A stretch of DNA of 63,922 nucleotides, the filler included, from Reclinomonas americana ATCC 50394 (taxonomy: Eukaryota), in the NCBI GenBank assembly GCA_048213135.1. It is 24 parts of 24 records of this genome, joined end to end, with 100 filler letters (N's around TTAATTAATTAA, not from the genome) between each part and the next. Parts side by side here need not be neighbours in the genome. Positions count along the whole stretch, not along the records: positions 17,377 to 20,212 come from AFZH01020091.1; positions 20,313 to 21,509 come from AFZH01020093.1; 22 more parts are not named here. The stretch is one strand, 5' to 3'. Below, piece by piece: positions 18,098 to 20,545 of this stretch (positions are counted from its first letter, which is position 1; each line of letters begins with the position of its first letter). The position numbers and the translations under genes are program-made. The notes below the pieces were generated by a model that had not been told where the DNA came from, made no database searches, and worked only from the letters and a program-made list of their open reading frames with translations.

Positions 18098-19154
18098 ATG
18101 TCTCTCCTCCGCAAGTGTTTGCATGGGCACACCGGTGCCGTGCTATACATCGCCCTCACTCCCGACGGACAGCACATTGTGAGCGGCGGCCTAGACAGGA
18201 CGGTGAGTGTGTGGTCACTGGCGAGTGGCGAGGAGGTGCGACAGTTGGAGGGACACTCTGGGCCAGTGTGGTCTGTCGCCGCCACTGTTGACTGCCAACA
18301 CATCGTGAGTGCGAGTCAAGACAAGACTGTGCGAGTGTGGTCACTGGCGACAGGGGAGGAGGTGCACCGGATGAAGGGACACTCGAAAGGCGTGTACTCT
18401 GTCGCCGTCACCCCCGACGGCCAGCACGTTGTGAGTGGTGGCAGCGACATGGCAGTGCGCGTGTGGTTACTGGCGAGTGGTGCGGAGGTGCGACTACTGC
18501 GAGGCCACACGGGCGATGTTTGGTCTGTCGCCGTCACTTCCGCTAGCGCCCATGTTGTCAGATACCACAGTGCGGGTGTGGTCGCTGGTGAGTGGCGAAG
18601 AAGTGCGACGGTTGGAGGGGCACACGGATAGGGTGCAATGTGTTATTGTCACTCCCGATGGTCAATACGTTGTCAGTGCAAGTCTTGACACCACTATTCG
18701 AGTGTGGTCCCTGGCGAGTGGTGCAGAGGTGCGACGGCTGGAGGGACACGCTGATCGAATAATGTCTGTCGCTGTCACTCTCGACGGCCAGCACCTCGTG
18801 AGTGGGGGGTTTGACGCGACCGTGCTCGTGTGGTCACTGGCGACTGGAGAGGAGGTGCGGCGACTGGAGGGGCACACGAATCTTGTGCGAACTGTTGTCG
18901 TCTCGCCCGACGGTCAGCATGTCGTCAGTTGCAGTGACGATCGCACCATTCGAGTGTGGTCCTCGCCGTGCGGCCTCGCTCAGCAGGAGCTCGATTGTGC
19001 GCGGTTGGCCATGCATGTGGTGCAGGAGATGCAAGAAGAAGAAGGAGAAGGAGATCGCCGCTGCTTGGTAGAGATTGTGCTGCGTTGCTTCCTGGTCGAG
19101 GAGGTGGAGGTTGTTCTCCATCTGTGTTCCGCAGATCCGCTCCTTCGTCTGTGA
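18098..19154 (+). pseudogene. WD40-repeat gene copy 1 (7 repeats + helical tail), frameshifted at about 18560
   Basis: 126-nt repeats GH...V..VAVTPDGQHVVS.S.D.TVRVWSLA.GEEVRRLE. Repeat 4 lacks about 11 nt (CATGTTGTCA^GATACC), splitting the ORF into 18098-18631 and 18435-19154. An assembly error cannot be excluded. Confidence 0.75.
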
Positions 19155-19329
19155 TTGTGTTCTGGTGTGCTGTGTTGTGAACAAAGTAAAGAAGAAGACT
19201 CCTTTTGCCGTTGCCGCGAAGCACTGAACACCATCGACGACGAGGTACTTGCACGAGAGCAGCGTCGGTACTTGTTGTCCCACACAGACTTATCACCACA
19301 CGAGTCGTGCGCACACACACACACACACA

Positions 19330-19371
<42 letters not shown>

Positions 19372-20545
19372 ATGTCCCTCCTCTGCAAGTGTTTGCACGG
19401 CCACGCTAACGTCTTGACGTCTGTCGCCCTCACTCCAGACGGGCGATACATCGTCAGCGGGAGTACAGATAAAACCGTGCGTGTGTGGTCATTGGTGAGT
19501 GGCGAGGAGGTGCGACGATTGGAAGGACACTATGAAGAGGTGTCGTCTGTCGCCGTTACTCACGATGGGCGTCACATCGTAAGTGGGAGCGAGGATGACA
19601 TCGTGCGCATTTGGTCGCTGGCGACTGGGGAAGAGGTGCGACACCGGCGTCTGGCGGGTCACACTGTGAGCGTGCCGTTCGTCGCTCTCACTCCCGCAGG
19701 TCAGCACGTTGCGAGTGGGAGTCTCGACGGTACAATCTGCGTGTGGTCACTGGAGAGTGGCGACGATGTGCGTCGGTTGGAGGGACACACTGGTACCGTT
19801 TACTCGGTTGCCGTCACCCCCGATGGACTGCACGTGGTGAGCGGCAGCCAGGACCGTACAGTGCGATTGTGGTCGCTGGCGACTGGGGAGGAGGTGCGGC
19901 AGTTTGAAGGACACGCTCACTGGGTGTGGGCAGTCGCCATCACTCCTGACGGAGAGCATGTTGTGACTGGGAGTCGGGACAACACTGTACGCGTGTGGTC
20001 ACTGGCAACTGGGGAGGAGGTGCGACGGCTGGAGGGACACACTGGTCGGGTGATGTCCGTCGTCGTCACTGCCGATGGCCAGCGCGTGGTGAGTGGGAGT
20101 TTTGACGCCACTGTACGCGTGTGGTCACTGGCAAGTGGTGAAGAGGTGCACGTGCTGGAAGGGCACACTTCCACTGCGCGATCTGTTGCCGTCTCAAGCG
20201 ACGGTCAGCACANNNNNNNNNNNNNNNNNNNNNNNNNNNNNNNNNNNNNNNNNNNNTTAATTAATTAANNNNNNNNNNNNNNNNNNNNNNNNNNNNNNNN
20301 NNNNNNNNNNNNTTAGCTGCAGCGACGATCACACCATTCGAGTGTGGTCCTCGCCGTGTGGCCTTGCTCGGCAGGAGCTCGATTGTGCGCGGTCAGCTTT
20401 GCGCGCAGTGCAGGAGATGCAGGGAGAAGAAGAAGAAGAAGGCGATCGCCGCTGTCTGGTGGAGATCGTGCTGCGCTGCTTCCTGGTCGAGGAGGTGGAG
20501 GTCGTTTTGCATCGGTGTTCCACGAACGCACTCCTATGCCTGTAA
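19372..20545 (+). CDS. WD40-repeat gene copy 2 (7 repeats + same helical tail; spans a gap)
   Basis: Starts MSLLCKCLHGH (copy 1: MSLLRKCLHGH); no intron in the visible sequence; ends SSPCGLARQELDCAR...CLVEIVLRCFLVEEVEVVLHRC, near-identical to copy 1. Confidence 0.9.

Follow-up and report, generated by a model that had tools for sequence, protein, structure and literature searches.

Among the closest described counterparts of the genes reported here are WD40 proteins of two kinds, the NWD/HNWD NLR proteins of Podospora anserina and the repetitive WD40 propellers. In the HNWD proteins, selection is reported to act on codons 7, 9, 25 and 27 of the repeat (PMC1805685). These codons flank the conserved codons 8 and 26 and are located in the d-a loop and in the b-c turn. 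The HNWD arrays rearrange spontaneously (PMC2873952), and high internal conservation has been defined as more than 85% (PMC4986451). Diverse hotspot sites have already been noted in highly repetitive WD40 proteins (PMC5587647), and re-amplified propellers are reported to be widespread, with many of them disrupted and a link to immunity suggested (bioRxiv 10.1101/2022.03.13.484165). Rapid divergence among the repeats of one protein, followed by fixation, is described as general (PMC5120217). We report here on a tandem pair of WD40 genes (positions 18098–20545) in a stretch of 63,922 nucleotides (nt) from Reclinomonas americana ATCC 50394 (GenBank assembly GCA_048213135.1). This whole stretch, referred to as the window, consists of 24 contigs and 23 linkers of 100 positions, each linker containing a six-frame stop word. 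In our view, to which we assign a probability of roughly one half, the pair belongs to a lineage-restricted family of small cytosolic adaptors that combine a variable binding face with a constant tail and evolve by birth and death.

The two genes lie head to tail on the plus strand, gene 1 at 18098–19154 and gene 2 at 19372–20545, and their starts are homologous. Each is a single intronless reading frame encoding a seven-blade WD40 propeller followed by a C-terminal tail of 64 residues (gene 1) or 65 residues (gene 2). The start codon stands nine codons ahead of the first Gly-His (GH) in both genes, and there is no N-terminal extension. A preliminary description of this DNA had listed fourteen 42-residue repeats with a near-constant scaffold, and we indeed find 14 GH-anchored blades, seven in each gene. 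The GH-to-GH spacing is 126 nt in 10 of 12 cases; it is 115 nt at blade 4 of gene 1, where the frame is shifted, and 132 nt at one place in gene 2, which has two extra codons there. All nine of the variable motifs that had been quoted after GH, and all eight of the form x-D-x, were also found. The WD40 part of gene 2 (19372–20212) is an open frame that runs from the start codon through six complete blades and half of the seventh, with the one two-codon insertion. It is interrupted within blade 7 by an assembly linker (20213–20312; 100 positions of N and the stop word), after which 20313–20545 on the plus strand holds the end of a blade 7, the 65-residue tail and a stop codon. We take this last segment to belong to gene 2. 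Three nucleotides suffice to close the gap in frame, assuming that it hides no further blades; hidden blades or the tail of another gene are conceivable at this point.

The tetrad residues of the WD40 fold are His in 14 of 14 blades, Asp in 13 of 13, Trp in 13 of 13 and Ser or Thr in 12 of 12. Structure prediction, which the preliminary description had put forward as a check, gave a closed seven-blade propeller: AlphaFold2 modelled a 280-residue piece of gene 2, with 23 homologs, at a predicted local distance difference test score (pLDDT) of 96.5 and a predicted template-modelling score of 0.92. The nearest solved structures are the seven-bladed PkwA and WRAP-type propellers, with template-modelling (TM) scores of 0.92–0.93. 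The best matches to the propeller are generic repetitive WD40 proteins, at no more than 57% identity. Among housekeeping proteins, named RACK1-type matches share 29–41% identity, and WDR5, LIS1 and G-beta share 27–31% in the fold search. As judged from these comparisons, the two genes are not orthologous to a housekeeping WD40 protein of the RACK1, WDR5, LIS1 or G-beta type.

The differences among the blades are unevenly distributed. With the 42 columns of the blade numbered from the glycine of GH, the entropy is highest in columns 5, 7, 25 and 23, followed by column 4. Codons 7, 9, 25 and 27 of the HNWD repeat correspond to columns 5, 7, 23 and 25 by a mapping that was inferred from the spacing and from the text of PMC1805685, so that the four most variable columns match, on this mapping, the four HNWD-selected positions, as had been proposed. 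Under the rule of PMC3419727, columns 5, 7 and 23 count as hotspots of the top face (R1-2, R1 and D-1, respectively); the structure model places them in the b-c turn and immediately before or at the beginning of strand a. An aromatic residue occupies column 7 in five of the 14 blades compared with an expected 5.5–7% (post hoc; p = 0.001–0.002). For comparison, we used as a control set the 122 of 362 collected proteins that have at least six canonical blades; these proteins were found through their resemblance to the queries and do not sample WD40 proteins at random. In bin averages for the three identity bins from 0.45 upwards (47, 52 and 9 proteins), the least conserved of columns 1–30 are 5, 7, 23, 4 and 25, a ranking from which the lowest bin (14 proteins) deviates. 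Variation at these columns is thus usual in repetitive WD40 proteins and does not by itself indicate immunity. The pair is somewhat more extreme than its peers, as identity at the four sites is 0.07, and the corresponding value for the 52 proteins with a comparable overall identity is 0.15.

Codon models were fitted to the 14 blades, two of which are partly missing, with the two inserted codons dropped; the four tested sites had been fixed beforehand from PMC1805685, and the tests take no account of recombination. The ratio of nonsynonymous to synonymous rates (dN/dS) at these sites was 3.5–5.1 on the maximum-likelihood (ML) tree and 4.25 on a star tree, with likelihood ratios against neutrality of 20–28, and was about 0.2 at the remaining sites. 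Empirical codon frequencies gave 3.35 (star tree) and 3.85 (ML tree) for the four sites, and a model allowing double substitutions gave 2.25 (p = 0.009). Gamma-distributed site rates gave p values of 0.012 and 0.031 with the star tree; with the ML tree p was 0.005, from a fit that had not converged. Comparison of M2a with M1a on the star tree, which is blind to the choice of sites, gave likelihood ratios of 15.8 and 18.3 and selected columns 5, 7, 23 and 25, with column 4 added in one model. When the genes were treated separately the hot sites were significant in each alone (p = 0.001 and 0.0001). We also considered a regional mutation hotspot, which is ruled against by the normal synonymous rate (1.17) of the adjoining codons. 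Other exposed loop columns, among them 13, 16 and 40, have dN/dS values of 0.45–0.6. The site-wise analysis that had been suggested at the outset therefore returns a nonsynonymous excess at the HNWD-equivalent sites in most models (dN/dS about 2–5, with p from below 1e-6 to 0.03 depending on the model), at sites that are saturated. The evidence is only moderate because of this saturation, and positive selection at columns 5, 7, 23 and 25 is likely but not proven from these sequences. The preliminary description had named, as the outcome that would speak against it, conserved orthologs of a housekeeping WD40 protein with no excess of nonsynonymous change; the results given above go against that outcome, as regards the excess in most models.

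The tail, which the preliminary description brought up only as a query for a copy count, is the most distinctive part of the genes. Counted from the last tryptophan (64–65 residues), the two tails are identical at 53 of 64 positions, including 28 of 29 in the middle part, and dN/dS between them is 0.09–0.17. The conserved core is L[PV]x[MIV][VI]LRCF. The tail of gene 1 (18960–19151, plus strand) is predicted to form two antiparallel helices with an acidic linker and falls outside known families; the structure model of the tail is a two-helix hairpin with a pLDDT of 74. A transcript open reading frame (ORF) from R. americana, EC795383.1 (EukProt EP00694 P005839; P0049 in our collection), carries a tail 61% identical to that of gene 1. 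A profile of the three tails, compared with 1.84 billion representative sequences, retrieved three proteins, namely this expressed sequence tag (EST), which is in the profile, and two others that we call P0121 (E = 9e-8) and P0122 (E = 6e-6). These are unnamed single ORFs of 381 and 394 residues on contigs of 5765 and 2262 nt, with degenerate propellers, the same tail and no NTPase in the called ORF. They share the propeller-plus-tail layout despite their degenerate blades, and the layout therefore predates the present blade amplification. P0049, P0121 and P0122 are the only tail carriers among the 362 collected proteins.

Other searches with the tail added no relatives. Pfam returned no family for any of five tails at E values up to 5–10, a range in which the HMMER filters drop weak matches. 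No tail relative was confirmed among the pattern matches in viral contigs (0 of 118 and 0 of 63), metagenome contigs (0 of 182 and 0 of 284) or prokaryote genomes (0 of 21). The ESM Atlas gave nothing usable, with three unnamed matches at 0.80–0.81, and a PDB sequence search gave only chance-level ribosomal L34 entries (E of 0.5 or more). In fold searches with the tail model no match reached E ≤ 0.001; generic hairpins alone were found, with Z scores up to 8.0, which does not imply that the fold is novel. A homolog search with an alignment of five sequences was dominated by generic WD40 proteins of 691–2000 residues and was thus uninformative on the tail. By eye only, the conserved core and the second helix loosely resemble the first helix of an F-box, the proline of that motif being valine in three of the five tails, and no BC-box spacing was seen in the tail. 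In the literature open to search, we found no description of a stand-alone, tail-bearing WD40 family in jakobids.

Gene 1 is damaged in blade 4 (18536–18563, plus strand), as is evident from the short GH spacing and from the alignment. A cluster of substitutions at conserved positions is followed there by an 11-nt deletion in strand b or the b-c turn, and as assembled the gene would give a truncated product of 177 residues. The report that one copy is broken is therefore correct. We looked for an intron that could rescue the frame and rejected the idea: 18 GT/GC-AG pairs would formally restore it, each of them leaving at most 32 of the 42 residues of the blade. Downstream of the lesion gene 1 is free of stops over 197 codons, and dN/dS in the scaffold is 0.25. 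The 3' part is still open over this length, so the loss looks recent, and gene 1 is probably a recent pseudogene or null allele.

The earlier account of the repeats as homogenised claims too much, and any homogenisation is old. Mean DNA identity between blades is 66–67% both within and between genes, with a maximum of 76%, and the proportion of synonymous differences is 0.55; protein identity averages 59% (range 41–71%). The gene-conversion test that had been recommended found no significant tract among the blades (longest run 16 polymorphic sites, p = 0.22). The blades do not cluster by gene, and their tree is weakly supported and close to a star, except for the two seventh blades and blade 5 of gene 1. 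Between the genes in register, identical residues number six of 27 at hot positions, 171 of 242 in the scaffold and 53 of 64 in the tail. Blades 2–6 are as alike out of register (0.737) as in register (0.733; p = 0.66), whereas identity at third codon positions is 0.78 in the first nine codons, 0.78 in blade 7 and 0.70 in the tail compared with 0.47–0.62 in blades 1–6. Had the genes arisen by plain duplication at the date implied by the tail (dS 0.54), an in-register excess of eight points would be expected, and the observed value was reached in none of 1500 simulations. Either internal blades have been exchanged or replaced from a wider pool, therefore, or the duplication dates back as far as the amplification and the 3' end was converted afterwards. 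The retention of register at the ends of the genes and its loss in the middle blades suggests an old exchange of blades. We note that blade 6 (18744–18869 and 20035–20160) is the only internal blade in which all four hot residues (R, M, F and A) are shared; it begins with a 24-nt exact in-register match. This blade might belong to the binding face as a fixed element, or it might mark the boundary of a 3' conversion.

The surroundings of the pair bear on its extent. To the left lies a class I/II aminotransferase gene on the minus strand (16917–18034; Pfam PF00155, E = 1e-16 and 1e-7), head to head with gene 1. A 117-nt tandem duplication with a 95% match (16792–17026) covers the 3' end of the aminotransferase gene. 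Only 63 nt of this contig separate the start codons of the aminotransferase gene and gene 1, too little to accommodate an NTPase exon, in agreement with the earlier statement that no NTPase domain is present. Gene 2 is separated from the stop codon of gene 1 by a 217-nt spacer (19155–19371) that contains (CA)n and (CT)n tracts and has no meaningful likeness to the other flanks of the genes. The right-hand boundary is an intron-containing RNase H1 gene (20908–22443, plus strand; Pfam PF01693 and PF00075), which apparently has two N-terminal hybrid-binding repeats, one identified by PF01693 and the other by eye. The aminotransferase and RNase H1 genes each run on across a linker, and for this reason the contig order near the pair looks true.

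Elsewhere in the window there is an NLR-like gene of the NTPase-pentapeptide-WD40 type (42578–47659, plus strand), the halves of which are separated by a linker. Walker A and B motifs occur in its intron-rich 5' half, and its WD40 part is a single exon of 749 codons. The window also holds other stop-free blocks of more than 200 codons. The absence of introns from WD40 coding regions is thus not peculiar to the pair: the genes are intronless, as had been described, and the contrast that had been drawn with an intron-dense genome is weak. A retrocopy origin is not argued from the lack of introns, as there are other long exons in the window. The contig at 1–2325 is bacterial (an AraC regulator, a Gcw_chp outer-membrane protein and a GC content at third codon positions, GC3, of 0.90), and the assembly is accordingly mixed; the remaining contigs are those of a microsatellite-rich eukaryote with many intron-split genes. 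A few further observations may be recorded. Near-identical reading frames at 48250–48707 and 49974–50425 flank the linker at 48774 and represent a local duplication or an uncollapsed haplotype. An open frame at 59340–60086 has a weak zf-RVT match (E of about 0.001) and is probably a fragment of a non-LTR (long terminal repeat) retroelement. The heptamer GTTGCGT occurs 15 times in the whole window compared with 8.55 expected, a count reached in two of 100 shuffles, and at least one copy sits at an apparent exon end (45130). An Rfam scan of the window gave no match.

Several results come together in the interpretation that we favour. Each gene encodes a closed seven-blade propeller in which differences between blades and between genes concentrate at the top-face positions that contact partners. 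These positions outpace synonymous sites, in contrast to the frame and the tail, on which selection is purifying, and copies arise in tandem and die by frameshift. On this basis each copy would grip a different protein target through its top face, and the two-helix tail, chiefly through its second helix, would dock to one shared host partner in place of the NTPase switch of an NLR. Candidate partners for the tail are an effector, a degradation machine or a helper receptor. New faces would come from selected point changes together with occasional swaps of entire internal blades in the past. The likeliest driver would be conflict with intracellular bacteria or viruses; we hold the immune role as such only tentatively, at less than even odds, within the broader proposal of a family of variable binders. 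The suggestion of a birth-and-death recognition repertoire made in the preliminary description is accordingly sustained in part: the selection excess, the dead copy and a transcribed, divergent third member speak for it, and the age and only moderate likeness of the repeats, the generic nature of the pattern and the saturation limit it.

A number of points weigh against the proposal of a variable-binder family. There are only two copies in this window, and the lack of a conversion tract together with the absence of any blade pair above 76% means that there is no sign of ongoing shuffling. The hot columns are also least conserved in the bins that hold 108 of the 122 other repetitive WD40 proteins. 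Saturation affects the hot codons, for which several fits were very large or at the bound (46, 55 and 90), and dN is no higher than dS if these codons receive a synonymous rate of their own (p = 0.23–0.6 in three of four models, the fourth being unconverged). In simulations under neutrality, p was 0.006 with divergence set to the fitted value and rose to 0.08 and 0.20 when divergence was raised 1.5-fold and twofold. The gene-to-gene comparison in register is weak (dN/dS 1.5–2.2; p = 0.14 and 0.025). Lastly, target binding, docking of the tail to a partner and a role in immunity are all proposed from sequence.

The same observations could be explained by a more ordinary history in which a blade was amplified to seven, the gene was duplicated early, and each face was adapted a single time, under positive selection, to an ordinary cellular partner and then fixed, with the 3' end later homogenised by conversion or evolving more slowly and with no continuing arms race. 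We consider this possible though doubtful. The blades are old and nearly equidistant and show no conversion tract, the excess between the genes is weak, and hotspot diversity is found in repetitive WD40 proteins at large, both in PMC5587647 and in our control set; paralogous repeats generally diverge fast and then become fixed (PMC5120217). A single round of tuning is harder to reconcile with the death of one of the two copies and with an EST member that has a third face at blade 7, and late conversion of the 3' end alone is insufficient, since the gene start, over nine codons only, also keeps register. It is also conceivable, if unlikely, that the top face has no ligand and drifts under relaxed constraint, function residing in the tail or in the side or bottom of the propeller, so that dN/dS values above 1 are an artefact of underestimated synonymous divergence. 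Saturation, the disappearance of the excess when hot codons have their own synonymous rate and p values of 0.08–0.35 if divergence is 1.5 to 3 times larger are all as expected for such drift. An excess that persists under among-site rate variation (p = 0.005–0.03) is not, nor are the enrichment of aromatics in column 7 and the dN/dS of 0.45–0.6 at other exposed loop columns (13, 16 and 40).

The presence in the same window of an NTPase-pentapeptide-WD40 gene, whose WD40 part is likewise intronless, raises the question of whether the pair derives from the WD40 domains of such receptors and now acts as trans-acting sensors, decoys or blade donors. Two short blade motifs are common to the NLR-like gene and the pair: the former has one blade with the linker WS..[ST]GEEV, found in two of 362 proteins, and a last blade with SCSDD, found in four of 362. 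Most of its blades are degenerate, however, and when they are scored with a profile built from the 14, the best comes only 97th of 363, so that many database proteins are as close to the pair; the DNA likeness is confined to patches of about 45–90 nt (70–82%), and the NLR-like gene lacks the tail, which in the pair is conserved in its own right. A detached origin of this kind is quite improbable in our estimation. Contamination by bacterial repetitive WD40 genes, or misassembly, might be suspected in a window that starts with a bacterial contig (1–2325), the more so as the best propeller matches are largely unnamed metagenome proteins and the solved structures closest in fold come from bacteria or derive from bacterial proteins. 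Gene 1 and the WD40 part of gene 2 nevertheless lie on a contig whose microsatellites resemble those of the eukaryotic contigs, and the tail-bearing contig runs into the intron-containing RNase H1 gene. With a GC3 of 0.61–0.69 in the pair compared with 0.90 for the bacterial gene, and with the tail present in a jakobid EST, we regard an artefact as very improbable.

The locus alone is of modest interest, as it consists of two old copies, one of them dead, and if the rival explanations hold it would represent an ordinary small paralog family of repetitive WD40 proteins. WD40 repeats that diversify on the top face are well known from fungal NLRs and are frequent in bacteria. A bolder extension, which we think rather unlikely, is that this free-living jakobid keeps an NLR-independent recognition library of many stand-alone propellers, their faces varied by selection and blade exchange, that would be joined through a shared two-helix module to a common effector such as a ubiquitin ligase core or a helper NLR. 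If so, a deep-branching phagotroph would have an innate repertoire organised into variable and constant parts. A family of that size, if real, would open a direct way to study the recognition of intracellular invaders by single-celled phagotrophs in the absence of NTPase receptors. The orphan tail, which is conserved, offers a concrete bait for the downstream machinery.

Among known proteins, EC795383.1 has the same blade linker and tail as the pair. It is identical to neither gene, differs in its last blade and top face, and covers only the 3' end; from its sequence it appears to be a third member of the family or the ortholog from a relative. The WD40 receptors of cullin ligases (WSB1 and WSB2 with their SOCS box, and F-box-WD40 proteins) also join a propeller to a short helical module, which is C-terminal in WSB. 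The logic of their layout resembles that of the pair, although a corresponding Pfam match is absent from the tails, and we regard the similarity as a lead only.

The repetitive WD40 propellers (PMC5587647; bioRxiv 10.1101/2022.03.13.484165), such as PkwA (PDB entry 5yzv) and WRAP (PDB entries 2ymu and 7bif), share the fold of the pair (TM scores of 0.92–0.93). They also share, as far as they are described in these sources, a conserved frame, diverse hotspots, termini that are better kept than the internal blades and frequent frameshifts. The pair differs from them in being eukaryotic, stand-alone and tandem and in having a conserved tail. With a blade identity of 0.59 (0.41–0.71), by a measure not exactly that of the paper, the pair would rank with the moderately rather than the highly repetitive WD40 proteins of PMC5587647.

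The NWD/HNWD proteins of P. anserina (HET-E, HET-D and HET-R; PMC1805685, PMC2873952 and PMC4986451) have 42-codon units in common with the pair. In the HNWD proteins the same four codons vary beside a conserved hydrophobic residue and a conserved Asp, with dN/dS above 1; dead copies are common to both, and possible signs of blade exchange are seen in the pair too. The differences lie in the architecture and in the degree of repetition. The NWD/HNWD proteins have NACHT and HET domains, whereas the pair has neither, nor any N-terminal extension, and consists of a single seven-blade propeller with an orphan C-terminal tail. Their repeats exceed 80% DNA identity (PMC1805685), compared with 66–67% and no conversion tract among the blades of the pair, and recognition by HNWD proteins rests on genetics, whereas the pair is known from sequence alone. 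The pair is not a member of the HNWD family, because it has no NACHT domain, no HET domain and no high internal conservation, yet in where and how its variation occurs it is like the HNWD sensor domain.

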